From a virus (Duplodnaviria; Caudoviricetes): a stretch of DNA of 64,000 nucleotides. The translations under genes and the position numbers were made by a program. The stretch is from IMG/VR virus record IMGVR_UViG_3300027708_000013; one strand, given 5' to 3'. Shown here piece after piece: positions 2-62,687 of the stretch; the stretch's first letter is position 1, and every line of letters starts with the position of its first letter. Below the pieces are notes generated by a model, which was not told where the DNA came from, did not search any database, and saw only the letters and a program-made list of their open reading frames with translations.

Positions 2-3000
2 TTGCAAGGCGACTTCGCTAACTTTGTTGGTAACGAAATAGGATTCACACCTAGACAATACTTGACAAACTTTGGTATTGATATACCCACACAGGCTAAA
101 TTTTATCAAGGGTTCATTAGACAAAAAGGCACATTAAATTCTATATCAGCATTTACAGCGGCAGGTTTCAATGGCGTAAGCAGCACAATCAATTTGTATG
201 AAGATTGGGCCATGCGTGTGGGCGAGTACGGTGCAACAAACAACAATAGATATGTTGAATTAATACTCAGCGAAGGCGTGTTCAAAGGCGAACCTGCTGT
301 GTTTAATTTTTTAAACAACGGCACCACAGCCACAGACAACATTGTGTCAGTGTATCCCGACAATATATACCGGTCCAGCATTGGGTATTCTCCAACAATC
401 TTTAAAGATAGAGATGACGCAAGTTTTTATGAAAACGATATATTAACTGCCGGTTATGTCAGCGTGGCAGATGTGGACACACAGATATTCAACATACAAG
501 CATATGGACAACTTAATTCGCAAATGGCCAATGTAGCCCCGGGCTACAAAATTTGGGCCGCACAGGACAACGTCAGCTCCAGCTGGGCAGTGTATCGTGT
601 AAACGAAACCAATGTTCTAATAAATTCAGTTTTTTACAATGTTGATTACACCATCACTGCAACTACAAATCGGGCACATGGCTTTGGTCGTGGCGACTAT
701 GTTGTGATCAAAGGATTTGACGGAAGAGTTGATGGTTTTTATCAAGTGTCTTCTGTGGTTGATAATTATAATTTCAATCTAATAATTGATGTCAACAGTT
801 ATCCTGTGCTGAAGTCTGCAGGAACCATCACCGGACTGGGGGTAGTTTATCGATTACAAACAGTGAGAATAAAATCACCTACAGATTTAAACGCCATTAC
901 TCCTTTAAATCAATGGCTGGATGGCGATAAGTTATGGGTTGATGCAGATCAAAATACACCAGGTTGGTTGGTATACAACAAGTCCAGCCCGTGGACCACT
1001 GCCAATGCCAGCGTGGTGACCAGTCCCTTGAGTATGCAGTTGGATGCCAACAGTTACATCAGTAATTCTGGATTCGGCACAGTGTCGACTATAAATCAGG
1101 CAGGAACATTTGCAGCGGCCAGTTTACCTAATTTAGGTATGGGCAATGTAATTGCATTTGTATCCAATGTCACCAATGGTTACAACTTTACCATGGTGGC
1201 CAATCTTGGTGCACCGCCAAGTAATAGTGCAAGTTTGTTTGGCGCCAGTCTACACAGTTCGGGTAATTTATTATATGTAGGAAATCCTGGCAACGGCAGC
1301 ACAGAGTATGGTAGAACACATATCCATAAATTTAATGCTACTGACACTGGTACTCCCACTGTAAACACTACTGCTGTTGCTACCGCTATCCTGCAAGCGT
1401 CGGTTGACGTTGAACCTGGAAAGACTTTATTTAAAACAACAACAGTTGGCGGAAGACCACTGGCAGATGTTAATAATTCCGGCACAGTATCTCCATTGGA
1501 TGCATTGGCATACAATCAATGGATAGGCGGAGTCAACACAAACCCAGGTCAGATTTCTTGGATTACCGGTACTTTACACCCTTATATTCTAGCAAACCCT
1601 GCCACTTATGGCGCATATATTAATGACTTCTTTACTTTATCACAAACATTATCAAGCCCATTCACTGGTAATACTGGAGATCAATTTGGTTACAGTGTAA
1701 GTGCCAGCGATGATGGTACTTGGTTATATGTTGGGGCTCCTGGTGCAGGCAATGTTTATGTATATCATGCCAATACAACCAGTTACTACAGCCTTGCCAA
1801 CACCATTGTGGGCAACAGCTATGTCAGCACAGGCAATGCTGTATCATCACGATTTGGTTATGTAGTCAGCACCACAAGCGAAGGTGACTATACTGCCATT
1901 GGAGCTCCAGGTGAAAGCATCGCAGGAGTATCATCTGCTGGTGCAGTTTATACGTTTAACCGCAGTCAAGAATCATTTATTGCCTCAGGCAACACAGCAT
2001 ATTACCCACAGTATGCTATTTCCGCTAATACTTTATTGGTCACAGTCAATGGCAATGTTGTAACCACTGGATACACCAGCAACAGCAGTGCTGTGACATT
2101 TACAGCAACACCCACAGTGGGAACCACTATCACCATCGATACTAATAAAATACAATTAGTAAAAAAATTAACAGAAACTGTTCCTGGCAGCGGAAATCAA
2201 TTTGGAACAGTGGCACACATATCCGGCAATGACGCAGATGTGTATGCATCAAGTCCCGGTTACAGCGAAGTGGGTTACCACAGTGGTGTTGTTTATAGAT
2301 TTGCCAACTACGGTGCCAATTACGGCACTGTGGCAGGCACAGTATACGATCCAGTGGTCACAGTGGGTCATAACTTGTATATCAATGGACAGTTAGTGAC
2401 GTTTGGTGCCAATGTTGGTGGCAGTTTAGTGGGCAATTTACAATCCATTGTGGCCAACATCAATTCAGCCAACATACCGGGCATCACAGCAACAGCACAA
2501 GATTATGGATTATTGACATTGACCAGCAACGTAGCAGTACCATACAAGAAATTATTAATTACACCAGGTACAGGAACAGCATTGGCCAACATTGGGCTAG
2601 ATGTTTATACCAATGTGCAATCTATCAAACATCCAGGCTCAGCTGATGTCAACGCTTTTGGTAGTCAACTTACATCCAGTGCGGACAGCAACAATTTAAT
2701 AGTCAGTGCCAACAGAGGCCAAACCAACAACGCAATGACTTTTGATCAATTGCTGACTCGCTTTGATGCAGATGCTACGTCATTCAGCGATATGCTACAG
2801 GGTTCGGGAGTGGTATACATTTATGGTTTAGTTGAAGGTTCATTGACATCAACCACACTGGATCAATACGTGTTGGTGCAACAATTACAAAACAACGCAG
2901 TAAGCTCTAATGATCAATTGGGCAGTAGTCTGGCATTGAATGCCAACATATTATTAGTCGGGGCTCCCGGCGATAGTAACCACTTAACGACTGACTCTGT

Positions 3001-6000
3001 GAGTCAAGCATTGACCAGTATTCCCAATGCCGGTACATACTACACATACAAAAACATCAGCGGCAACGTGGGCTGGGATATTATCGGCAGTGAGCAACCA
3101 CAAGTTGACATCAGCAGCATTACTAGAATGTATCTATACAATAACGTTACTGATACCTTGTTGACAAACTTTGATCATATTGATCCGGCCAAAGGCAAGG
3201 TACTAGGTATTGCTGAACAAGATTTAGATTACATTACTTCGTATGATCCGGCCATTTACAATGCCGGTGGTGGCCCCGAAGCCGGTCCCTTGGGCGGAGC
3301 CAGTCCAGACTTCCATTGGGGATCTGCACAAGTTGGGAAAACTTGGTGGGATACCAGCCTGGTTCGTTATGTAGATTATGAGCAGGGCAACTTAACTTAT
3401 CGTGCTAACCACTGGGGCGAAATGTTCCCGGGCAGCACTGTTCAAGTGTGTGAGTGGGTGGCAAGTTCTGTTCCGCCCGACCAATACACCGGCAGTGGCC
3501 AACCGCTTTATACAGAATTTCAATCTTATGTAGAAGAAAACTATGTAGACCAAGCAACCAAAGTTGTACGCACCAGATATTACTTCTGGGTTAAAGATAA
3601 AACCACAGTGCCAACAAATTCAACAAGAAGAAACAGTGTTAAAATTTTACAAGAAATTATTGCCAACCCCACTGCTCAATCGGTTCCCTATGCTGCCGTA
3701 CTACGCAATGATGCTGTAAGTCTTTACAACATAGGCGATTATTTAACTGGTGCTGGCAACACAGTGGTATTCCATGCTGACACAGATGCATTAATTAACA
3801 ACAATATCATGCATAACGAGTGGCAATTGGTTCAAGAAGGCAACAGCAACAGTTTGATTCCCACCAGGATTGTTGAAAAAATAATTGACAGTTTGGCTGG
3901 AGTGGACCAGTATGGCAACACAATCCCAGACGCAACATTAACACCACAAACAAGAATTGGGTTAGACTTTACTCAAACTGTATTTGTTGACAGAATGACA
4001 GCGTTGAAAAACTTTGTTGAATATGTCAATAACGTAATGATACAATATCCCATTGTAGAGCAACGCAACATCAACAATTTATACAGTGCAGAAGCTCAAC
4101 CTGCAGATACTGAGTATGATCTTGCTATTGCTACTCGGGCAGAACTAGATTACATCAACACAGCAACAACATTATCAAATTATACTGTGCTGGTGATCAA
4201 TAACGAAACACAAAACGGACTTTGGACTGTGCATACATGGACAGGTACAGCGTGGAGCACGGTGCGTACTCAAAGTTACTACACTCCGTTTTACTGGAGT
4301 TTTGCTGACTGGTACGACAGTACCTACAACTCCAGCGACACTGTAAAATATTTGGCCAACACCTACGCTGATCTAGCCACATTGACAGCCTCGGCAAATG
4401 ACACTGCTCAAGTAGCCAACAGAGGTAACGGTGAATTTGCTGTGTATCGTTACAACGGTTCTGCCTGGGACTTGGTGGGACTTGAAAACGGTACCATTCA
4501 ATACAACAGTACATTGTACACCACTGATGTGGCTGCTAATGAAATCAGAATACTATTTGAAACCATACGTGACAGTATTTTTGTTGATACACTAATTGGT
4601 AATTTCAATGGTCTGTTCTTTTATTTGATTAACTATGTACTAACCGAACAAAAATCTGTAGATTGGGTATTTAAAACCAGCTTTGTCACAGTGTTGCATC
4701 AGCTGAAAAAATTAGAACAGTTCCCTGCGTATATTCAAGACAACCAAACATACTACGAGAATTATATCAACGAAGTTAAGCCGTATAGAACCAGCATACG
4801 TGAATACTTGATCAACTATCAAGGTACCGATGATTTCACTGGCGATATTACAGACTTTGATATCCCAGCAACTTATATTGCCAATATCAATGCTTATCGT
4901 AGTCCTGATGGTAGTTTGCCGTCAGATGCTTACAGTTTAGCCACATTGCCGCAGTACAGTCAATGGAACAACAATCACAGTTACAGCATCAACACTGTCA
5001 CTGTGAGCAACTCAGGTGCCAACTACTATACAACTCCTACAATCACAGTGACAGGCGGTGGCGGCACAGGCGCCAATATACAAGCAGTTCTTGACGTGGC
5101 CAGCAATACCATTGCTAGATTTGACGTAGTTGATTCAGGATCAGGCTATACTTCTACTCCTACCATACAGATCAATGGGTCAGGTGTAAATGCTGCTGGA
5201 TATCCAAAATTGGTGTCAGAGCAGTTCATTACCAGTGTACCTGTGCAGACTATAACCACTGTGGGCAACGCTGTGATTTATGTTGGCAACATTGTTACTC
5301 AACCCAACACAGGTGCATCAGGAGTTGCTTACTCAGCTTCAACAGGCAACATTATTACTTTAAAAGATGTTGTTGGTACATTTGTCAGCAACCAATGGTT
5401 GTTCAGCGACTCCAGTAATTTATCAATACGTCCAGGTGTAGCCACAGTGTCAATGAAATTGACCGGCAATCTCGTTGCCTACACAGGCAATATTATTAAT
5501 CAACCGGGCAGTGGTGCACAGGCAGAAGTATACTACAATACCACAGGAAATGTTGTATCACTGTGGAATTATTCAGGAACTTTTGTTGGTAACGCATATC
5601 TATATAGAAACGGGTCAAACCTCAATATTAAGCCTGCGTATTATACTGTTTCCACAGTGACACCTGTTGGTTCTTATACTGCATTTGAGGATCAAAGCTA
5701 CAACAAAGTTAGAACATTTACTACACATGTGAAATTTGATAGAACCACTTATACCAGCAATATATCAGCATGGCAACCCAACGTCACAGTGTCGGCCAAT
5801 TCGCGTGTGAGTTATCAAGGCAGTGCATACCAAGCCAACTCCACAGTATACAGCAGTGCTACACTTAAATTAAGCAGTAATATTTCAGCCACAGTGGGTG
5901 ACTATGTAACACAAGGTAACAATGTCAGTGCCAATGCTAGAATTGTTTCAATTGCCAGCAACAGTTTAATCACAGTGGCCAATTTAACTGGTAATTTTTT

Positions 6001-7489
6001 ACGACGCACCGGTAATATTGCAATCAACGGCATCACTTCTGTAGCCAGTCCTGTGGCAGTTACAAATATATTTGATTATGGAAAATATTCATTATTGTCA
6101 ACTGCTAATTTAAGCAATGCCAGTGATCGCATTACTGCTGCTTATCAACCTGGATCGGGTATGCCGGGTTTAGATTTGGCACAGTTGATGTCGGGCATAG
6201 AATATCCAGGTGTACAAGTGCAAGGCGTAAAATTTGGAGCCACAACTTCAAATATCGCATCTAACATACTGTATTTTTACAGTAACACTTCAACACTGTA
6301 CAGTTCTAACGTGGCCGTGCTTGATTTTACTACCTACGGGCTACAACCAACATTGCCCATATCTATTGTTAATCTTGACACCGGGTTGAGAAGCAATGTC
6401 ACAATATTAAATGTCACAACTGGATCAATGTTCCTGGTGGGTGCAATGGCCAATATCGCATTGGGTGCCAACATCAGTATTGTGTATTATGATTACAACG
6501 ATCCTGCCTACTTAGACACCAACATACAAAGTTTTTATCGTGACTCTGCACTCGGCACCCGTGCCGAAGATATCAACGTTGATGGCGGTGGATACTACGA
6601 CACTTATAGCAGTCATGCTCCTGAGGAATTGATACCAGGAGTGACATTTGACAGTTTAAACATGATGGTGTATACACAAACTGGGAATGCCAATGTGGGT
6701 TATCGTGTGGTTCACAACATGTCGGCCAATGCGGCCAGTGTCAGCACACAGTATTGGCCTCAGTACTACGCTATTTTCTCAGCCAATACCACTGCACTGT
6801 CGGCAAATTTAAACATCACTGACAGTAATGTATATGTAACCAGTACCGCTGGATTGGCTACACCGTTGCCACAGTATACACAACCGGGTGTAATTTATGT
6901 CAACGGCGAAAAAATTACTTACTATACAATTGATAGAGTTAACAATGTATTGGGACAGCTACGTCGAGGGGTAGATGGCACCGGAGCACCTGTAGTTCAT
7001 CCAGCAGGAACAGCAGTGGTTGAATCATCTGTAAATCAGCTGATACCAACCAGTACCACACGTGGTGCCAATGTGCATCTTGGCAGTTGGTTAAACTTAA
7101 AAGTATCTGCCAATGTATCAATATTAGATGATAACTTATCCAATGATATAGTGGACAACATTTCCAATAACATAACTTCGTACCCGCAGGATCTACTAGA
7201 ATATCTAACATTGAACACAAATGCCACTGTGACTGTGGGAAATACCATTGCCCAATTGGCAACAGGTGCATCGGGTGTGGTAGCAGCCAACAGCACCGGA
7301 ATCACTGTTACAATATGGGCCGCCAATGCAACTGGAGCTTTCTCGTCCAATATCTTGGCCAACACCTATGTTTACAGAAATGGTGCCAATTTAACTGCCA
7401 AAACTGTGGGTATTTCCTACGACACAGTGGATGGCACAGGATTGGCTGGCAGTAACACAACTCAAGCTGTGTTTATTAGAGGGTATTAA
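2..7489 (+). CDS. Large virion structural protein, probable baseplate wedge subunit (5'-truncated by window edge)
   Basis: 2495-aa open frame running off the left edge. FG-GAP-like repeats (GDQFGYSVS..LYVGAPG, SRFGYVVS..AIGAPG, DQLGSSLA..LLVGAPG), a TPTITVTGGGGTGA segment like T4-type baseplate proteins, N/T/S-rich beta composition, and position directly upstream of the tail fibre genes. Confidence 0.7.
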   Translation: MQGDFANFVGNEIGFTPRQYLTNFGIDIPTQAKFYQGFIRQKGTLNSISAFTAAGFNGVSSTINLYEDWAMRVGEYGATNNNRYVELILSEGVFKGEPAVFNFLNNGTTATDNIVSVYPDNIYRSSIGYSPTIFKDRDDASFYENDILTAGYVSVADVDTQIFNIQAYGQLNSQMANVAPGYKIWAAQDNVSSSWAVYRVNETNVLINSVFYNVDYTITATTNRAHGFGRGDYVVIKGFDGRVDGFYQVSSVVDNYNFNLIIDVNSYPVLKSAGTITGLGVVYRLQTVRIKSPTDLNAITPLNQWLDGDKLWVDADQNTPGWLVYNKSSPWTTANASVVTSPLSMQLDANSYISNSGFGTVSTINQAGTFAAASLPNLGMGNVIAFVSNVTNGYNFTMVANLGAPPSNSASLFGASLHSSGNLLYVGNPGNGSTEYGRTHIHKFNATDTGTPTVNTTAVATAILQASVDVEPGKTLFKTTTVGGRPLADVNNSGTVSPLDALAYNQWIGGVNTNPGQISWITGTLHPYILANPATYGAYINDFFTLSQTLSSPFTGNTGDQFGYSVSASDDGTWLYVGAPGAGNVYVYHANTTSYYSLANTIVGNSYVSTGNAVSSRFGYVVSTTSEGDYTAIGAPGESIAGVSSAGAVYTFNRSQESFIASGNTAYYPQYAISANTLLVTVNGNVVTTGYTSNSSAVTFTATPTVGTTITIDTNKIQLVKKLTETVPGSGNQFGTVAHISGNDADVYASSPGYSEVGYHSGVVYRFANYGANYGTVAGTVYDPVVTVGHNLYINGQLVTFGANVGGSLVGNLQSIVANINSANIPGITATAQDYGLLTLTSNVAVPYKKLLITPGTGTALANIGLDVYTNVQSIKHPGSADVNAFGSQLTSSADSNNLIVSANRGQTNNAMTFDQLLTRFDADATSFSDMLQGSGVVYIYGLVEGSLTSTTLDQYVLVQQLQNNAVSSNDQLGSSLALNANILLVGAPGDSNHLTTDSVSQALTSIPNAGTYYTYKNISGNVGWDIIGSEQPQVDISSITRMYLYNNVTDTLLTNFDHIDPAKGKVLGIAEQDLDYITSYDPAIYNAGGGPEAGPLGGASPDFHWGSAQVGKTWWDTSLVRYVDYEQGNLTYRANHWGEMFPGSTVQVCEWVASSVPPDQYTGSGQPLYTEFQSYVEENYVDQATKVVRTRYYFWVKDKTTVPTNSTRRNSVKILQEIIANPTAQSVPYAAVLRNDAVSLYNIGDYLTGAGNTVVFHADTDALINNNIMHNEWQLVQEGNSNSLIPTRIVEKIIDSLAGVDQYGNTIPDATLTPQTRIGLDFTQTVFVDRMTALKNFVEYVNNVMIQYPIVEQRNINNLYSAEAQPADTEYDLAIATRAELDYINTATTLSNYTVLVINNETQNGLWTVHTWTGTAWSTVRTQSYYTPFYWSFADWYDSTYNSSDTVKYLANTYADLATLTASANDTAQVANRGNGEFAVYRYNGSAWDLVGLENGTIQYNSTLYTTDVAANEIRILFETIRDSIFVDTLIGNFNGLFFYLINYVLTEQKSVDWVFKTSFVTVLHQLKKLEQFPAYIQDNQTYYENYINEVKPYRTSIREYLINYQGTDDFTGDITDFDIPATYIANINAYRSPDGSLPSDAYSLATLPQYSQWNNNHSYSINTVTVSNSGANYYTTPTITVTGGGGTGANIQAVLDVASNTIARFDVVDSGSGYTSTPTIQINGSGVNAAGYPKLVSEQFITSVPVQTITTVGNAVIYVGNIVTQPNTGASGVAYSASTGNIITLKDVVGTFVSNQWLFSDSSNLSIRPGVATVSMKLTGNLVAYTGNIINQPGSGAQAEVYYNTTGNVVSLWNYSGTFVGNAYLYRNGSNLNIKPAYYTVSTVTPVGSYTAFEDQSYNKVRTFTTHVKFDRTTYTSNISAWQPNVTVSANSRVSYQGSAYQANSTVYSSATLKLSSNISATVGDYVTQGNNVSANARIVSIASNSLITVANLTGNFLRRTGNIAINGITSVASPVAVTNIFDYGKYSLLSTANLSNASDRITAAYQPGSGMPGLDLAQLMSGIEYPGVQVQGVKFGATTSNIASNILYFYSNTSTLYSSNVAVLDFTTYGLQPTLPISIVNLDTGLRSNVTILNVTTGSMFLVGAMANIALGANISIVYYDYNDPAYLDTNIQSFYRDSALGTRAEDINVDGGGYYDTYSSHAPEELIPGVTFDSLNMMVYTQTGNANVGYRVVHNMSANAASVSTQYWPQYYAIFSANTTALSANLNITDSNVYVTSTAGLATPLPQYTQPGVIYVNGEKITYYTIDRVNNVLGQLRRGVDGTGAPVVHPAGTAVVESSVNQLIPTSTTRGANVHLGSWLNLKVSANVSILDDNLSNDIVDNISNNITSYPQDLLEYLTLNTNATVTVGNTIAQLATGASGVVAANSTGITVTIWAANATGAFSSNILANTYVYRNGANLTAKTVGISYDTVDGTGLAGSNTTQAVFIRGY

Positions 7490-11157: not shown

Positions 11158-13113
11158 ATGACCTATCTACCATACGGCCTAACTAGAATCAAACAAGGTT
11201 CCGCATGGAAACCCATAAAGAGTCTTTGGTATAAAAACTCTGCGGGTACTTGGATCGCAGTAAAAACAGCGTGGACTAAACGCTCGGATGGAGTGTGGGA
11301 AAGAGTTTATCCCACACCGGCCGGTGTCAATACTGCCACCCCCACATCATTCACAGTTGAAGTATATCAGAACTGGCGTCCGGCTTTTCAAACTATAAAT
11401 TTTACAAATATTGGCGATAGGGCTTTAACTATTGCCAATGTAATTGCCTACGATGGTGTAAAAACCATAACCACAGTGAACCTGTCAGGCATGAATAGTG
11501 GTGTACCCTACACCATAGATACAGGTGGCACTGGATCTGTTGTTGCTAATGTTTATGGCAAAGCCGTGGGCACCAGCACAGGCAACATTACCTTTGTCAA
11601 TGACACTGGATACTTTGGCTCAGACGGTAATGTTGCCTATTGGCCTGGCAATCAAACAGTGATACCCATTACCACCACAGTGCTGGCCGGCTACAGCGAC
11701 ATCACAACAGTGCCTGGACCAGCTAATAACGGATACACTTACTATCAAGGAACCACCAGTTCGGACACATTGACCATTACCAATTCTGGCACTGGTGCCA
11801 ATCTTGTGGTGTCCGGCATCACTTCTGGCACTTATACACAAGTTGCTAATTTTGTTGGCAACATTGGTGCCAATTTTACTACATTCTCTGGCAATTCCGT
11901 CAGCAGAGCTATCACACTGGCCAATTTGAAAGCCGGCACATATCAAGATCAATTTGTTGTTAATAGTAATGCACGTAGCAAAAACACATACACAGTTCCA
12001 GTGACACTCAACGTATTGGCTGCTCATGGCAGTGAAAATTTTACTACAGTTGGCACCTACACTTGGACTGTACCTGCGGGAGTACTAAGCATCAATGTTA
12101 CAGCCCTGGGCGGCGGTGGCGGTGGTGGAGGTAATGACGCTAGTCCCGGGCATGCTGGCTTTACTGGACATTTAATCTCTGGGCCACTTAATGTGGTACC
12201 CGGGGATACCTTAACATTTTACATTGGTGGTGGTGGCTCGGGTGGATACTCCAGCAATCAATCTCCTGTAGGCAGTGGGCCCGGCGGATGGGGCAATGGT
12301 ACATACGATGGCGGGCGAGGCGGTAATGCCGGCTCAGGTGGAGTATCGGGCGGTGGTGGTGGCGGAGGTGGCGCCACAGTTATATTAAAAAATGGATCAC
12401 CTATGGCAGTAGCCGGTGGTGGTGGTGGTGGTGGTGGCGGTGGCTGGCACAGTGCCGGACGAGGAAGATCGGGCTACAGTTCCAGTGGCAGTACTGCTGG
12501 TGGTGCAGGACAAGACTATCCCGGTGACGGTGGAGGCGGAGGCGGAGGTGGAGGCGGATCAAACGGTGGGTCCGGTGGCGGACTGGTAGGCGGAGACAAC
12601 GGTGCTTATTCGGGCAGTGACGGTGCTGATATAGTATTAGGTGGATGGAGTCAGTCAGGTCAAAGTGGTGACAGCGGATGGTATGCTACAGGACAAGAAG
12701 CTGGTGTTTGGAATAGTTTTATATCTACTTATGGCATTTGGATCGGCGGACCATACGATGTCGCTACAGTGAGTTACAGTACCACTTTAAACTTCCCGAC
12801 CTCGGGCAACTATACATTTAATATAAGTATTGATAATGCTGGTTTTATTAGCATTGATGGCACGGAGGTATTAGACAACCCCTCTAGTTGGGGAGGAGTA
12901 GATAGTGCTTCAGTTTATGTTTCTGCTGGATCTCACACTATAACTGTAACTGGTACAAACTACGGCGGACCAGCAGCAATATCAGCACAAATCGTAAACC
13001 CAAGCGGATCAGAATTATGGAATACTTTGGCGGCATTGAACACCGGCACTAATTACAACGGAGGCCCAACAGCTGCCTCGGGTGGTAATGGTTATGTGTC
13101 GTTCTCGTGGTAA
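11158..13113 (+). CDS. Glycine-rich putative receptor-binding adhesin
   Basis: N-terminal Trp repeats, Ig-like middle region, long polyglycine runs (GGT codon tracts ~12110-12590), and a PA14-like C-terminal beta domain (TFNISIDNAGFISIDG..SAGSHTITV). Confidence 0.65.
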   Translation: MTYLPYGLTRIKQGSAWKPIKSLWYKNSAGTWIAVKTAWTKRSDGVWERVYPTPAGVNTATPTSFTVEVYQNWRPAFQTINFTNIGDRALTIANVIAYDGVKTITTVNLSGMNSGVPYTIDTGGTGSVVANVYGKAVGTSTGNITFVNDTGYFGSDGNVAYWPGNQTVIPITTTVLAGYSDITTVPGPANNGYTYYQGTTSSDTLTITNSGTGANLVVSGITSGTYTQVANFVGNIGANFTTFSGNSVSRAITLANLKAGTYQDQFVVNSNARSKNTYTVPVTLNVLAAHGSENFTTVGTYTWTVPAGVLSINVTALGGGGGGGGNDASPGHAGFTGHLISGPLNVVPGDTLTFYIGGGGSGGYSSNQSPVGSGPGGWGNGTYDGGRGGNAGSGGVSGGGGGGGGATVILKNGSPMAVAGGGGGGGGGGWHSAGRGRSGYSSSGSTAGGAGQDYPGDGGGGGGGGGGSNGGSGGGLVGGDNGAYSGSDGADIVLGGWSQSGQSGDSGWYATGQEAGVWNSFISTYGIWIGGPYDVATVSYSTTLNFPTSGNYTFNISIDNAGFISIDGTEVLDNPSSWGGVDSASVYVSAGSHTITVTGTNYGGPAAISAQIVNPSGSELWNTLAALNTGTNYNGGPTAASGGNGYVSFSW

Positions 13114-57366: not shown

Positions 57367-57657
57367 TTATCCTTTCAATAACCATATTAAGTGTTCTACT
57401 GTGCTGTGATATCTAACAACGTGTACTGGTGGTCTCGGAATCGCAACAGCAGAAGTTGAATCACTGTGATTATTATAAGCACCGCGGTATGCTGTTTCCA
57501 ACCACATCAGCCGTCCACTTATGTCACAACGCTGAGGCCACCATAAAAACAGCAACCGCCATTCAATGTGTTCGCGGTACCATTCAGCTACCCAGTCTTC
57601 AGTCATTGATCTCCTGCCGGGTCCTAGTATTCCTGGCATGGGCATTACGTACCCCAC
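57367..57657 (-). CDS. Hypothetical protein (start uncertain, possibly 57606)
   Basis: Fills the gap between queE and 57363. Confidence 0.5.
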   Translation of the reverse strand: MGYVMPMPGILGPGRRSMTEDWVAEWYREHIEWRLLFLWWPQRCDISGRLMWLETAYRGAYNNHSDSTSAVAIPRPPVHVVRYHSTVEHLIWLLKG

Positions 57658-58496
57658 TCGTTCTTGAAAAGCGGCACTTGAAGTCTGTCACTGTATCTCC
57701 AACCACGCTTCATAGCCGCCCCTGCTACATTACGTGCATTCAGTGAGTACACACTTTCCACACCACCCACTGGCATCAAGTACACAGGACCTGTAAAGCC
57801 TGCACTACGATATGCACCCACGGCACATTCTGCATCAGCAACATCTTGTTGTGTGGCCACAACAAATTTCAAATACGCTGTTCCATAATTTTCATATTCG
57901 CATACAACATCTGGAAGAATAGCTTCTTCCCACTTTTCACCTGACGCTGGAAGTTTAGCACTAACACTAAACGTAACTTCTTTTGAGTTTTCATAAACCC
58001 AATCTTCTAAATAACTTTTAAATTCTTCTGTTAGTTTTTGAGTGCCATTTGTTTCAAAGGTTATTTCTTTCAAAGCCTTCAAACTGGGATGATCTAGTAA
58101 ATCTGGGTAGGCACGTTGCCATCCCAACAAAGGTTCCCCTCCAGTGATCACAAGATGTTCGTCTCTCCACTCACCATGTGGTAAGATCTCCATGATACGA
58201 GCCACAATGGCATCCGTAGTCAACATGGGACTGAGCTGTTTAAAGTCCGGATGCCACGACGCATAACTGTCACAACCAGTTGACACCAATGGTAATGCCT
58301 CATATCGTGGGTAAGGATACAACTCATGTATTGCGGCCAAGTCATCGGCTTCGGTACTTGACTCGCCACGTGGCATGCCAAATCCGCTACAAGTGAAGTT
58401 ACACCCAAATGTTCGAAGGAACACACTGGGTACTCCCATGTATCTTCCTTCTCCCTGGATTGAATAAAACAGTTCTGCTATTTTAATCTTGCTCAT
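57645..58496 (-). CDS. queE: 7-carboxy-7-deazaguanine synthase (radical SAM)
   Basis: ELFYSIQGEG, VFLRTFGCNFTC, GCDS, VITGGEP, FETNGT, KFVV, YLMP, RLQVPLF. Confidence 0.9.
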   Translation of the reverse strand: MSKIKIAELFYSIQGEGRYMGVPSVFLRTFGCNFTCSGFGMPRGESSTEADDLAAIHELYPYPRYEALPLVSTGCDSYASWHPDFKQLSPMLTTDAIVARIMEILPHGEWRDEHLVITGGEPLLGWQRAYPDLLDHPSLKALKEITFETNGTQKLTEEFKSYLEDWVYENSKEVTFSVSAKLPASGEKWEEAILPDVVCEYENYGTAYLKFVVATQQDVADAECAVGAYRSAGFTGPVYLMPVGGVESVYSLNARNVAGAAMKRGWRYSDRLQVPLFKNEWGT

Positions 58497-58764
58497 CGAA
58501 TATTGTACTCCACTTTCGTAATTTGTTAAATTTGTTTTGTTTTGCTACGGTTATTTCTGATTCTGTTACCACACCGTGTTGTTTTAACAGCTCAATCATG
58601 GCCACTACATCGCCAATTTCTTTCACTAAGTTTTCACGTTGTGTGCCTGATTCTTTGAGGTACACATTGTCCATACCAAAACGTCTACACTTGCTGATGC
58701 TTTGTATCACCTCGGCACACTCTTCTTGTAGTATATCTAATATTTCTGTTATCTTGCTAGTCAT
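58483..58764 (-). CDS. MazG-like nucleotide pyrophosphohydrolase
   Basis: LQEECAEVIQ..KC.RFG..KEIGDV (EExxE..ExxD). Confidence 0.75.
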   Translation of the reverse strand: MTSKITEILDILQEECAEVIQSISKCRRFGMDNVYLKESGTQRENLVKEIGDVVAMIELLKQHGVVTESEITVAKQNKFNKLRKWSTIFDEQD

Positions 58765-59483
58765 TTTCTTGCAATTCCATTTAAAACTAAATTAGTTTGT
58801 TCCTGCATCACTTGATCCAGTGTGGTGTTTATAGACAATCCCAACTTGGGTGCTATTATTTTATTACAATATTCCCAATGAGTCAATGGTGTTGGGTGAT
58901 TATCTGTGCCATCTGGGTGATATTGATGTCGAGTCAACATGTATTGATTGTTTTGTTCTTGATAATCCAGCAAGGAAATTCCCTCGACATGATTGTTGGC
59001 AATATTATATTTTTTATATATGTCCAACAATTTGGCATCTACCTCTTTTTCTGTTTCGCCTGTAAAAAACGGAAAAGCTGAAAAATGATACACAGTATAT
59101 TTTTTTCTATAACTGTCACAGTCAACCAAATACATGTAATCCATTGTGGTTTGAAAACGTTCCACACAGTGATAAAAATTGACTAAAAATGTTTTGTCTC
59201 CTCGTATACTGCCCAGGTGATGCCAGTGTGGATCATGTTTATTGGACGGACTTGATTTTGGTGTATCTCGATACCTGGACCAACGATCAAATCCAGACCA
59301 CATGATCACCACTGTATCACCGGATCGGGCTTGATCAACCACCGATCGTGCAATGGTGGCATTGTCTCCACCAGCGATGCCTACGTTGCGAAACTCATTA
59401 AATTCTGCACCGAGATAGTCGGCCCAAGTACTCCAACAGTAATCAGTAAAACTACACCCCGACACTACTAATCTTGTGTTCAT
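58761..59483 (-). CDS. SGNH/GDSL-like protein
   Basis: VSGCSFT, IAGGDN, DNHPT..H. Confidence 0.55.
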   Translation of the reverse strand: MNTRLVVSGCSFTDYCWSTWADYLGAEFNEFRNVGIAGGDNATIARSVVDQARSGDTVVIMWSGFDRWSRYRDTPKSSPSNKHDPHWHHLGSIRGDKTFLVNFYHCVERFQTTMDYMYLVDCDSYRKKYTVYHFSAFPFFTGETEKEVDAKLLDIYKKYNIANNHVEGISLLDYQEQNNQYMLTRHQYHPDGTDNHPTPLTHWEYCNKIIAPKLGLSINTTLDQVMQEQTNLVLNGIARK

Positions 59484-59484
59484 A

Positions 59485-60435
59485 TCAAATTCCCAAATTC
59501 TGTATTTTATTGTGATTTTCTATCATGTATTCTTCAAATCTCGTTCTATTATTGATCAATCTCGGCAATAGTTTTTGATATAACATATTTAGATCTGACG
59601 GGCGTTTATCAAAGTTTTTTAATATCTCCGCAATGGCATGTGCCCGGTCACGCCAATGCGGGAGACTCCACCAAGTACCAAATACATCATCAAAGGTATC
59701 AAATCCCGATTGATGCAATTGATTGTATAAATTATCGTCACCTAATATTAAAAATGGACGTAGGCCAATAATGGGTTTCCATGATTTCTCACTGAGAAAA
59801 ACATTGGAATGTTTGCAGGATTCTGTGACCACATTGATAAAAATTTGATTCCATATTGTGGGATCGCCTAGGCTAAAAATGTCGTTGGCTATTTTTCCAA
59901 TGTTTTCTGGTTCGTGAGGATCAAACTGCTTTACATCATAGTGCGGATCAATGAATCCTTGAGTACTTTGACTCACAATTCCATGATCTTTCACACTGGC
60001 AAGTTGTTCTAAAAATTCAATTCTAAACGGATGCAGTTTTCTATTTAAACATAGATATAATTTTTTTATATTGGGTGCTTGAGTATAACGTTGATCAAAG
60101 AAATACTCAGGATTTTGTCGTATAAACTCCACCCAATAACTAAAATAATACTGCCCATAACTGTTACCAATGTGTATTTGTGCTCTAGATCGATTGCAAA
60201 TTATTTCATGTGCTGCAGTTCTAAGAGGAATACATCCTGTGCTCTCCCAATCAATACTGGAATAACACACTGCAATTTTTTTACAATCTAGTTTATCAAG
60301 TTCTGTATCTGTTGCAGTGATACCACTGGTATCAATGAAAACATGATCCTGTGACAGTTGCGGTAGTATTTGTTCAATGATATAGCAATTGACTTTCCCA
60401 CGCCGAGATAAATTAAACGGTTTATTATATGCCAT
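59485..60435 (-). CDS. GT10-motif-like protein
   Basis: INVVTES..FLSEKSWKPI..RPFLILG..GFDTF. Confidence 0.5.
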   Translation of the reverse strand: MAYNKPFNLSRRGKVNCYIIEQILPQLSQDHVFIDTSGITATDTELDKLDCKKIAVCYSSIDWESTGCIPLRTAAHEIICNRSRAQIHIGNSYGQYYFSYWVEFIRQNPEYFFDQRYTQAPNIKKLYLCLNRKLHPFRIEFLEQLASVKDHGIVSQSTQGFIDPHYDVKQFDPHEPENIGKIANDIFSLGDPTIWNQIFINVVTESCKHSNVFLSEKSWKPIIGLRPFLILGDDNLYNQLHQSGFDTFDDVFGTWWSLPHWRDRAHAIAEILKNFDKRPSDLNMLYQKLLPRLINNRTRFEEYMIENHNKIQNLGI

Positions 60436-60461
60436 TGATTTTTATTGCTTGTGCTGTGGAT

Positions 60462-60665
60462 TCAACATTGGTTCCAATGTCTTACTACACCTGCGATTAT
60501 AACAAAATTTGTTATTATGTATATCAACACAATTACTGTGCGAACACCGGCGACGCCGTCGGCTTCTTGATCAGTAGCACCAGTTTTTTCACCCAGTGCC
60601 TTGGCCCAAATTCTCCAAAGATGCCTAACCTTCGTAGATGGCACTGTTGGCTCCATGTTCAGCAC
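60462..60665 (-). CDS. Small membrane protein (start uncertain)
   Basis: WRIWAKALGEK..EAD..RTVIVLIYIITNFVIIAGVVRHW, one TM segment. Confidence 0.55.
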   Translation of the reverse strand: MLNMEPTVPSTKVRHLWRIWAKALGEKTGATDQEADGVAGVRTVIVLIYIITNFVIIAGVVRHWNQC

Positions 60666-61251
60666 ATTCCGCTCTTACACAGTAACAACGACCATTGGTT
60701 TTTTCTCTAATCAATTGATCGGCAAAATAAAATGCATGTTCGGCAAATTTCTCTGCACCCACACCATTGAATATTCTAATTTCGGCTAATCCCAACTCTT
60801 CCAGTTCTTGGAATTTGGCAAGATATGGATCAGCGAGATCCAACGCCAATTTATGATCAAAGTTATCTTCTAACCATGCCTTGAGCGGTTTGAGTCCGCC
60901 AAAGTCCACTGCCCAGTTTTTATCATCTAATTCATCGCAACCAAATGTAAATGTAAATGCTAGACTGTAACCATGTAGCAAATGACAATGACTGTGATCT
61001 GCGTTGGGTTGACGAAACACAGCACTGAGTCCTATGTTGTGTCCGTAGTGCTTGGTTGAGTAATATTTTGCCCCAGACCTTTGCCCTGTTTCGGCAATGT
61101 CATTGAGTGCTTGCTCGGTTGATTGAACTGTATTGCGTAACTGTTCAATGTATTCAGATGTCTCGTCACTATTTGCCTTGGTGCTATGGTAATGGTTGAT
61201 TCGAGCATCAAAATAGTCGCTCAGTGCTGATGTGAAAGTTTTATTTGCCAT
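60625..61251 (-). CDS. queD: 6-carboxy-5,6,7,8-tetrahydropterin synthase with N-terminal extension
   Basis: HCHLLHGYS, DFGGLK, FDHK, GAEKFAE, ECAEHGANSAIY; AGGAG RBS. Confidence 0.85.
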   Translation of the reverse strand: MANKTFTSALSDYFDARINHYHSTKANSDETSEYIEQLRNTVQSTEQALNDIAETGQRSGAKYYSTKHYGHNIGLSAVFRQPNADHSHCHLLHGYSLAFTFTFGCDELDDKNWAVDFGGLKPLKAWLEDNFDHKLALDLADPYLAKFQELEELGLAEIRIFNGVGAEKFAEHAFYFADQLIREKTNGRCYCVRAECAEHGANSAIYEG

Positions 61252-61330
61252 TGTATTCTCCTATGTTAGATTATAGCATAGACTTGCAGAATTTGTATAG
61301 CGGGAATGAAAGCCAGAAAGGCCGCTTGAA
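61252..61330 (-). ncRNA. Candidate cis-regulatory RNA (preQ1-I-like pseudoknot plus RBS hairpin) upstream of queD
   Basis: P1 AGCGG/CCGCU, 18-nt loop ending in C, A-rich tail AUACAAA, P2 GGCUU/AAGUC, and a CUAUG/CAUAG hairpin overlapping the AUAGGAG RBS. Pairings assigned by eye only. Confidence 0.4.
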
Positions 61331-61337
61331 ACAGTAT

Positions 61338-61889
61338 TTATTGTTGCCACCAAGTTTCCCAAGGAAAACAAATCCACACCGGGTCTTCCAGTTTGTTGAT
61401 GTCCGTCCCCGAATAGTCCACCAAAAACTCACTCGCAGTGTTGTTCACCAGCACAGCAGTGCGTACATTGTGATGCCAGACGTTCAGCCAACGATCGTGA
61501 TTGGGCAAACAACTGCTTTGCCAATCCTCCCGAATCCAAGCCAGTGTGGCACCGGAATCATTGATGTCGTCTACTATTAATATACGTTTAGCATGTATGG
61601 TGTAGTCAAATGCACTGTTGGTGCCCAGGCCTTGATATCCGCCATCCACCCAACCGAATGCATCTTCGGCCATGCTGAGATTACTTGTACGCTCATCTCC
61701 GTCACGCAAACTCACATCCAGACTCCGCATTGGTACGCCCAAATAATGACTCAACATCAATGCCGGAGTCAATCCACCACGTGTGAGTCCCACAATGTAA
61801 TCGGGGCGCCATGAGCCCTCGTGCAGGTCACGTATAATTTCATGCACCCAACCACGAACATCTGCATCGGTGTAATAGATTTTTTTCAT
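61338..61889 (-). CDS. Type I phosphoribosyltransferase (xanthine/guanine PRT-like)
   Basis: IVGLTRGGL, ILIVDDINDSGATL (PRPP-binding loop), WICFPWE. Confidence 0.85.
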   Translation of the reverse strand: MKKIYYTDADVRGWVHEIIRDLHEGSWRPDYIVGLTRGGLTPALMLSHYLGVPMRSLDVSLRDGDERTSNLSMAEDAFGWVDGGYQGLGTNSAFDYTIHAKRILIVDDINDSGATLAWIREDWQSSCLPNHDRWLNVWHHNVRTAVLVNNTASEFLVDYSGTDINKLEDPVWICFPWETWWQQ

Positions 61890-62635
61890 CTTGGAGCAAA
61901 GTCCTGTTGTAGTTTGATATTGTCCATGAACTCTTTTTTAGTTCCTGGGTCTGTGTTGAACGCACCTTTGAGTACTGTGGTCTGTGTCAAACTACTATGT
62001 GCCATGATGCCTCTATTGGTGCAACATCCATGTTCCGCCTGTATGTAAACTCCAATATGTTCCGAATCTGTTGCTCTCATTATTTCTTTTGCGATGTCGT
62101 TGCAGAGCTCTTCTTGTAAAGTACCACGCCTAGCACACCACTGAGCAATCCTAGTGTACTTGCTAAGACCAATAAGTTTGTTAGCGGCGATAATACCAAT
62201 GTAAGCCACACCACTAACAGGCTGATGATGATGACTACACATACTACGCAACTCACTTCTAATAACCAACATACCTTCATATCTATCCTCGCTATCATTT
62301 GGAAAAGCTGTTGCATCTGGTGCTGCATCATATCTACCCGCCATCGTTTCGTTAAAATACATTTTAGCCAATCGCTTGGCAGTGCCCTTGCTGTTTGGAT
62401 CCGTTTCTCTATCAATCAGCAAGCGATCTAAAACAGTTTCGAATGCCTCAGCGGCTTCGTTGATCAATTGTCGTTTGACGGCATCATTATTGACATATTC
62501 GCTAATATTGTCTCCAGCCCAAAATCTTTTACCATTTCGTTTCATTGTGGCACGAATCACGTCTGATACTGGGCATAGTTGATAACCACCGTCACCTGCC
62601 ATTGCGGCTAGGCCTGTTTCTTTTTTATTTGTCAA
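61886..62635 (-). CDS. folE: GTP cyclohydrolase I
   Basis: TAKRLAKMY, SMCSHH, GLSKYTR, QEEL, HGCCTNRG; TTG start with GGGAG RBS. Confidence 0.95.
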   Translation of the reverse strand: MTNKKETGLAAMAGDGGYQLCPVSDVIRATMKRNGKRFWAGDNISEYVNNDAVKRQLINEAAEAFETVLDRLLIDRETDPNSKGTAKRLAKMYFNETMAGRYDAAPDATAFPNDSEDRYEGMLVIRSELRSMCSHHHQPVSGVAYIGIIAANKLIGLSKYTRIAQWCARRGTLQEELCNDIAKEIMRATDSEHIGVYIQAEHGCCTNRGIMAHSSLTQTTVLKGAFNTDPGTKKEFMDNIKLQQDFAPR

Positions 62636-62658
62636 TTAGTTCTCCCGTGTATTGTGTT

Positions 62659-62687
62659 ATTGTATAGTATTTAGATTCAAGTGTCAA
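62659..62687 (-). promoter_or_regulatory. sigma70-type promoter of the folE operon with nested TAAATA
   Basis: TTGACA(62687-62682)-17 nt-TACAAT(62664-62659); TAAATA at 62668-62673. Confidence 0.75.

Follow-up and report, generated by a model that had tools for sequence, protein, structure and literature searches.

The phage riboswitches reported to date all belong, to our knowledge, to bacterial classes, as does the preQ1-II riboswitch found in the que genes of Streptococcus phage Dp-1. The described class closest to the element studied here is preQ1-I (RF00522; types I to III, e.g., B. subtilis queC, T. tengcongensis, C. antarcticum, and E. coli), a small H-type pseudoknot of ~34 nucleotides (nt). 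In this class, a UC/AC specificity dinucleotide precedes the 3' strand of helix P1, with U in type I and A in types II and III (PMC11625349). Riboswitches are rare in phages (PMC9004378). Here, we describe a conserved pseudoknot at positions 61326-61281 (minus strand) of a 64,000-nt phage sequence (Duplodnaviria; Caudoviricetes; IMG/VR record IMGVR_UViG_3300027708_000013), which is referred to at its full length as the window and in which the pseudoknot lies in the leader of a queD-like gene. On balance, the element is probably the aptamer of a candidate new class of phage riboswitch, preQ1-I-like in architecture and exerting ON-type translational control of queD, with a bypass promoter overlaid on it in the leader type found in the window.

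The proposed aptamer is an H-type pseudoknot of 46-53 nt, with a P1 of 5 bp, an L1 opening with N-C-U, a P2 of 4-7 bp, an L2 of UCA..C, and an L3 of W-U-A-Y-A-A-A-Y-UCUGC. The parts of the element in the window, with the Shine-Dalgarno (SD) sequence and the promoter-like signals around it, are as follows.

61335-61342, minus strand: TAARTA promoter-like element AATAAATA, 8 nt upstream of P1.
61322-61326, minus strand: P1 5' strand, AGCGG, pairing with 61299-61303.
61315-61321, minus strand: L1, CCUUUCU, opening with the conserved N-C-U motif.
61310-61314, minus strand: P2 5' strand (pseudoknot), GGCUU, pairing with 61281-61285.
61304-61309, minus strand: L2, UCAUUC, with UCA invariant or nearly so and C 61304, before the P1 3' strand, conserved (first alignment, below).
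61299-61303, minus strand: P1 3' strand, CCGCU; P1 encloses an 18-nt loop.
61286-61298, minus strand: L3, AUACAAAUUCUGC, with an A-rich first half and then the invariant UCUGC.
61281-61285, minus strand: P2 3' strand, AAGUC, whose UC also belongs to the 5' arm of the hairpin that sequesters the SD.
61270-61299, minus strand: sigma-70-like promoter, TATACA, 18 nt, TATAAT, with TG; its -35 falls inside L3 and its -10 inside the loop of P3; 10/12 in the promoter scan.
61260-61282, minus strand: P3 hairpin, UCUAUG/CAUAGG, with TATAAT in its loop, predicted to hide the AGG of the SD.
61249-61262, minus strand: SD AGGAG (61262-61258) and queD ATG (61251-61249), read from the sequence.

A QueD-based scan of IMG/VR yielded at least 592 relatives. 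In 79 of 80 loci retrieved, a covariance model located the element upstream of queD, the sole miss being truncated by the contig end. The first alignment (A1; MAFFT, 61 distinct copies) was scored with P1 and a 7-column P2. In this alignment, 88.6% of cells paired, compared with 35-55% when the 3' partners were slid by 1-3 columns, and the covariation score was 0.446 versus at most 0.114 in the slid controls, a value reached by 0/500 shuffles. A second set, gathered independently by a pattern scan of IMG/VR, was aligned to a P1-only model in which P2 was not fitted; its 85 sequences gave 86.0% paired cells versus 38-50% and a covariation of 0.413 versus at most 0.102, cell counts that, through kinship among the sequences, inflate the number of independent events. 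Double-sided changes were present in 10/12 pairs in both alignments. For P1, four of the five pairs showed compensatory changes in the first alignment and 97-99.5% of cells were paired across both, with the variants GCGG/CCGC, CCGG/CCGG, GUGG/CCAC, GAGG/CCUC, GUCG/CGAC, UCGG/CCGA, and AAGG/CCUU. P2 had double changes in 6 or 7 of its 7 columns and 76-81% of cells paired; in register, 86.6% paired versus 28-47% when shifted. Its variants included GGCG/CGCC, GGUG/CACC, GAUG/CAUC, GGCA/UGCC, GGGC/GUCC, GACGC/GUGUC, and AUGACAU/AUGUCAU, among others, and 141 distinct core sequences were collected. The strands of P2 were asymmetric, with 58 G.U cells versus 12 A.C cells, which argues for an RNA of the queD sense and not a DNA signal. 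The drawing of the pseudoknot in the first-pass annotation of this DNA (P1, P2, the 18-nt loop, and a CUAUG/CAUAG hairpin) was exact in sequence and coordinates on re-reading, with CUAUG at 61281-61277 and CAUAG at 61265-61261. P1 and P2 as drawn there are real and conserved: both helices covary in two alignments, the covariation check on related phage queD leaders having been set beforehand. Within the window, covariance models found a single genuine copy (53 and 50 bits); a second match at 11209-11252 (18 bits), inside a coding open reading frame (ORF) and without the loop core, was rejected as chance.

In contrast to the variable stems, about 15 unpaired positions were at least 90% conserved in the first alignment, comprising N-C-U after P1, UCA..C in L2, and U-A-.-A-.-A-Y-U-C-U-G-C in L3. 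The C and U after the top of P1 were invariant in all 61 sequences, while the remainder of L1 ranged from 4 to 11 nt. Within A-Y-UCUGC of L3, the A, U, C, and G were invariant, and U, A, A, U, and C of the loop were conserved at 90% or more. The residue before the conserved C of L2 was mostly U, sometimes A or C. Judged from sequence, variable covarying stems combined with fixed loops would be typical of an aptamer that binds a ligand, and C 61304 is, by analogy with preQ1-I, a candidate ligand-pairing base. UCUGC was predicted to be unpaired in ligand-free folds, and its conservation is therefore not accounted for by the expression platform. The minimum free energy (MFE) fold additionally paired AUUCU (61292-61288) with AGAAU (61259-61255). 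Further pairings that were considered (L1 with L3, UCUGC with GCGGA, and UCUGC as an anti-SD) lacked covariation or were topologically awkward and are not claimed.

The features shared with preQ1-I are those that a divergent member of that class would show if it bound preQ1 or preQ0 and shut off queD as product feedback. Both are small H-type pseudoknots with a 5-bp P1 and a P2 in which the hairpin loop pairs with the 3' tail. The first half of L3, which starts UUUACAAA here, resembles the A-rich preQ1-I tails. Immediately 5' of the P1 3' strand stands a conserved C that in most copies follows U or A (C in 61/61 sequences of the first alignment, three misaligned short variants being read by eye). 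The element also shares its setting, in front of a 7-deazaguanine pathway gene as part of the leader, and its predicted action on translation initiation. The differences are nevertheless considerable. The element is 46-53 nt long versus ~34 nt, with an L1 of 4-11 nt and a P2 of 4-7 bp. At 13-14 nt (10 in one short variant), its L3 has roughly double the length and closes with the invariant UCUGC. Its SD lies 6-25 nt 3' of P2 and not inside it, its predicted polarity is ON versus OFF, and it occurs only on phage or phage-like contigs, with ligand binding here having candidate status.

Database searches also placed the element outside the known classes. A search of 3 kb around it against Rfam 15 gave no match at E ≤10, and the 116 nt around it gave only chance alignments (E 2-8), with RF00522 absent even at E ≤10. 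A preQ1-II (RF01054) match of 13.5 bits was discarded, as only the unstructured flanks were aligned and the 69-nt core was deleted. No Rfam match was obtained for 15 diverse relative loci, and over five whole related phage records the best RF00522 scores were 14-16 bits, located elsewhere and at chance level (gathering threshold, 39 bits), while the B. subtilis control scored above the cutoff. Literature searches found no description of the element. The element is thus absent from Rfam, and by the tests run it appears to be preQ1-I-like in architecture yet not a member of RF00522. Accordingly, what stands of the preQ1-I resemblance proposed in the first-pass annotation is the architecture and the link to a 7-deazaguanine gene; class membership does not, since the Rfam search it had suggested gave no match to preQ1-I, II, or III, and the long L3 with UCUGC and the SD outside P2 also speak against it. 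Together with the predicted ON platform and with QueC and TGT having gone undetected in four near-complete related phage genomes, which may mean that the phage pathway does not yield preQ0 and preQ1 (both described below), these findings make a divergent preQ1-I member improbable. The preQ1-II riboswitch of Dp-1 is similar in being phage-borne and adjoining que genes but differs in belonging to a known bacterial class, RF01054.

Three leader types (a, b, and c) had the same aptamer. In type a, the window type (54 distinct leaders), the P2 3' strand was followed immediately by (C/U)CUAUG, a loop, and CAUAGG-AG, forming a hairpin that is predicted to hide the AGG of the SD and whose first two bases belong to the P2 3' strand. 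The CUAUG/CAUAG hairpin at the ribosome binding site (RBS) was kept in 54/54 of these leaders, as the earlier drawing would have it, and in variants L181 and L207 the P3 pairing was kept with other letters. In types b and c, the P2 3' strand and the next few bases were complementary to the start-codon region (e.g., GUCAUC with GAUGGC, UGCCAUUG with CAAUGGCA, GUCAUUGUU with AACAAUGGC, and AAGUCAUC with GAUGACUU), and hence the P2 5' strand mimics the start region. The duplex between the two regions had a mean energy of -8.7 to -9.0 kcal/mol versus about -3 for shuffled strands. The pairing also tracked the coding start, with AAGUCAUC accompanying AUGACUU and UGCCAUUG or GUCAUC accompanying AUGGCA; in a cross-group comparison, the mean duplex value of MTY-type leaders was -10.8 with their own starts versus -7.2 with MAK starts. 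When the aptamer residues were withheld, the predicted unpaired probability of the AUG in types b and c rose from 0.08-0.13 to 0.36-0.55, and the predicted accessibility of the SD in type a rose from 0.41 to 0.78, although modeling with part of the RNA blocked is biased toward a more open outcome.

The P2 3' strand is common to the knot and to the sequestering helix, which are mutually exclusive, and a stabilized knot should therefore open the RBS. In the mechanism proposed, this strand would either pair with the loop, closing the knot, or combine with its neighbors to build an RBS-burying helix, which in the window type would be the CCUAUG/CAUAGG hairpin over the SD and in the other two types would lie over the start-codon region. 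If a ligand locked the knot, the RBS would be freed and queD translation turned on. From this modeling we infer a translational ON switch, the opposite of product feedback; the OFF logic suggested in the first-pass annotation is at odds with the competition between the P2 3' strand and the RBS/start-sequestering helix in each of the three leader types. The Vibrio vulnificus add adenine riboswitch is a translational ON riboswitch built on a three-way junction. In such switches, as here, a strand of an aptamer helix doubles in the helix that sequesters the RBS or start; they differ from the present element in having a three-way junction rather than a pseudoknot, in controlling salvage or efflux genes, and in having known ligands.

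The gene content of related phages bears on which ligand is plausible. Five related jumbo-phage records (those behind L030, L031, L048, L062, and L076; 222-357 kb; four at least 96% complete) contained FolE and QueE. QueC (PF06508) and TGT (PF01702) were undetected in these five records, in which a divergent DpdA could be missed. It follows that preQ0 and preQ1 may not be products of the phage pathway. FolE and QueE without QueC or TGT/DpdA hint at a route at the level of 7-carboxy-7-deazaguanine (CDG) or of the nucleotide rather than at preQ0 base exchange. By analogy, the conserved C and the gene context suggest a guanine-faced ligand, which could be a 7-deazapurine or pterin intermediate (CDG, preQ0, 6-carboxytetrahydropterin [CPH4], or dihydroneopterin triphosphate [H2NTP]) or guanine. 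With the absence of QueC and TGT and the ON logic, the candidates shift to a guanine-faced precursor or intermediate (H2NTP, CPH4, or CDG) or to guanine/GTP.

A sigma-70-like promoter is written over the element in the window type. The first-pass annotation had allowed that TGcTATAAT (61278-61270) was just an internal promoter, and such a promoter was indeed kept in 51/54 type a leaders, with a -35 of TTTACA/TATACA in L3, a 17-18-nt spacer, and TGnTAWAAT in the P3 loop (criteria: -10 matching at ≥5/6, -35 matching at ≥4/6, and spacer of 17-18 nt). If no functional RNA existed and only DNA signals (the sigma-70-like promoter and TAARTA) were conserved, with the pairings arising by chance, this retention, the TATACA-18-TATAAT with TG in the window, and a window fold with z = 0 would all be expected. 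Types b and c, however, retained the knot without an internal promoter, and hence the promoter cannot explain the element; it overlies the RNA element and does not replace it. The P2 3' strand, though located in the promoter spacer, covaries with loop bases 25-30 nt upstream, G.U exceeds A.C, and the slid controls drop to 35-55% pairing. A promoter-only explanation appears at the sequence level to be contradicted already by the covariation, and an element made of DNA signals alone is very improbable indeed.

Transcripts from the internal promoter would, judging by its position, start near 61262, lack the knot, and be unregulated, so that in the window type the sigma-70-like promoter over L3 and the P3 loop may act as a bypass. 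Transcripts bearing the switch would come from the upstream TAARTA element or from the folE operon promoter. TAARTA was sharply positioned, ending 3-14 nt before P1 in 43/55 type a leaders, and if active it would give transcripts starting just before the aptamer. TATAAATA and ATAAATA showed no enrichment in the window, so only its constant placement among relatives speaks for TAARTA as a late promoter. In many leaders of types b and c, sigma-70-like promoters ended 5-9 nt before P1, and such upstream placement would put the aptamer at the 5' end of the transcript. The best sigma-70-like site of the region was at 62659-62687 (minus strand; TTGACA-17-TACAAT, 11/12), just upstream of folE; it is likely the operon promoter and would also give knot-bearing transcripts. 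In many type a leaders (L005, L009, L029, L031, L045, L051, L056, L066, and others), a conserved GGCUAUCAACAGCC-like hairpin was located just 5' of the CATAAGTA/TATAAATA element, ~15-40 nt upstream of P1, and may mark where the upstream transcription unit ends.

The distribution of the element was strongly tied to queD. In the IMG/VR pattern scan, 118/119 matches were genuine copies, and the ORFs following pattern-found copies were QueD homologues in 112/115 cases, with 30-90% identity to the window protein. The remaining three were genes inserted between the leader and queD. In L142 and L181, a foreign ORF (113 and 282 amino acids [aa], respectively) separated the two. L021 had two leader copies, at 2147-2194 and 2944-2991, one before an inserted 236-aa gene with only a weak methyltransferase-like Pfam match (E 0.09) and the other before queD; in L150, the same gene was directly downstream of the leader (4352-4403). 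These arrangements suggest that the leader acts as a portable regulatory cassette. The same pattern applied to one genome per species of 185,579 prokaryote species gave 25 matches, only 5 of which were genuine, all on contigs of metagenome-assembled genomes (MAGs) with queD downstream. Three matches in bacterial MAGs, L084, L091, and L105, lacked P1 and queD and were dismissed as chance. L090 and L097, two contigs of the MAG "Rickettsiales bacterium MED657," carried near-identical marine copies with queD, probably phage DNA in the bin, with an SD only 6 nt past P2. Blastn of the operon and leader against 50,697 GenBank phage records found no copy and nothing useful. The four nearest cultured-phage queD genes retrieved, at ≤53% identity, had no leader or no motif, and no cultured model phage was found among them.

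The genes 3' of queD in the relatives were heterogeneous, including glycosyltransferases, a DAHP/KDO8P-synthase family enzyme, QueE, MazG, a sugar epimerase, and methyltransferases, which leaves queD as the only constant target. Examples were found at L009 3088-3921, L017 4274-5074, L074 3647-4489, L023 3891-4841, and L056 4278-6203. A nucleotide-sugar epimerase/dehydratase, a B12-binding radical-SAM protein, and UvdE were also in this set, placing sugar chemistry beside the deazapurine pathway.

These backgrounds are relevant to whether a small molecule is involved at all. The element could instead be a conserved cis-regulatory pseudoknot lacking such a ligand, serving as a translational operator bound by a protein of the phage or its host, by ribosomal protein S1, or by the 30S subunit, or acting as a cotranscriptional anti-sequestor or thermosensor. 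The mRNA leader of phage T4 gene 32 contains a pseudoknot that is an autoregulatory, protein-binding translational operator without conserved small pocket-like loops. It is likewise a phage mRNA-leader pseudoknot governing translation, but it is a protein site, and similarity in sequence or size is not expected. The structure, the covariation, and the competing RBS helix fit this explanation as well as they fit a riboswitch; the ON logic on a biosynthetic gene would be odd for a metabolite sensor. The element, however, occurred on contigs of 4-357 kb from freshwater and marine sources, with 30-90% QueD identity, three expression platforms, and varied neighbors, which argues against one dedicated phage protein. 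The strict link to one enzyme gene and the many invariant unpaired bases in a 46-nt preQ1-I-like RNA typify metabolite aptamers. A pseudoknot acting without a small molecule is, on this evidence, the main alternative, if a rather unlikely one.

Besides the modeling bias and the kinship among sequences noted above, several points weigh against a metabolite-sensing ON riboswitch. The window fold by itself was no better than chance (MFE, -14.6 kcal/mol versus a shuffle mean of -14.59; z = 0.00), and it is the comparative evidence that makes the element more than a chance fold. In type a, the overlap of P2 and P3 is only 2 nt, P3 showed almost no covariation, the conservation of its loop is better explained by the promoter, and the predicted accessibility of the AUG fell from 0.44 to 0.16 with the aptamer blocked. 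A protein or the ribosome is an equally good candidate partner for the conserved loops. ON control of a biosynthetic gene is uncommon and makes the ligand hard to rationalize. If the internal promoter were dominant, the knot would be missing from most queD mRNA of the window phage. A contig from a metatranscriptome, identical to the window, spanned 61072-61331 and thereby the aptamer and the 5' end of queD, ending 5 nt before P1, and the aptamer of a relative was found in a second RNA library; these are weak hints, as RNA-library contigs prove neither transcription nor 5' ends, and gaps in RNA cover over the phosphoribosyltransferase (PRTase) gene are not evidence either.

A fuller version of the riboswitch reading is offered tentatively. 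The class, absent from Rfam 15 and from the papers searched and known to date only from viral or virus-like DNA, would turn queD on in response to a guanine-faced precursor or intermediate (H2NTP, CPH4, CDG, or guanine/GTP), giving feed-forward control of a phage DNA modification that in these jumbo phages apparently proceeds without QueC and DpdA, and one leader type would be dual-coded with a bypass promoter.

The surrounding genes of the window are arranged as follows.

62635-61886, minus strand: folE, the first gene of the cluster.
61889-61338, minus strand: PRTase gene, 183 aa, directly preceding the queD leader spacer.
61338 to 61251, minus strand: 86-nt spacer from the PRTase stop to the queD start, containing the pseudoknot element.
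60625-61251, minus strand: queD-like 6-pyruvoyltetrahydropterin synthase (PTPS) gene, 208 aa (Pfam PF01242, 3.6e-12; phrog_2389, 1e-36).

The whole cluster (57645-62687, minus strand) comprised folE, the PRTase gene, queD, two ORFs without a family match, a MazG-like gene, and a gene for a QueE-like radical-SAM protein. The QueD of the window had an extra N-terminal stretch of ~58 aa (MANKTF...RSG; residues ~3-60; 61078-61245, minus strand) that was absent from most relatives, whose QueD begins MAKYYSTK at the equivalent of window residue 60. The QueD proteins of L003 and L007 seem to have an N-terminal extension as well, and one DNA contig (run X1) skipped 61072-61255, so that a form without the stretch may exist. 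At the other end of the window, a very long ORF of 2495 aa (2-7489, plus strand) is listed from a TTG at position 2 and may start before the window.

The element is abundant, being present on at least 600 IMG/VR contigs, and closely linked to a single enzyme of 7-deazaguanine synthesis; all copies found were on phage contigs or on MAG contigs where queD follows. Should it bind a metabolite, it would represent a new variant of aptamer fold related to the smallest known riboswitch and a compact ON-switch part, and the promoter overlaid on it would be an unusual example of dual coding. Its ligand could help to reveal what the FolE-QueD-QueE pathway finally makes in phages that lack QueC or DpdA, and metabolite binding would show how phages time or meter a pathway of DNA hypermodification.

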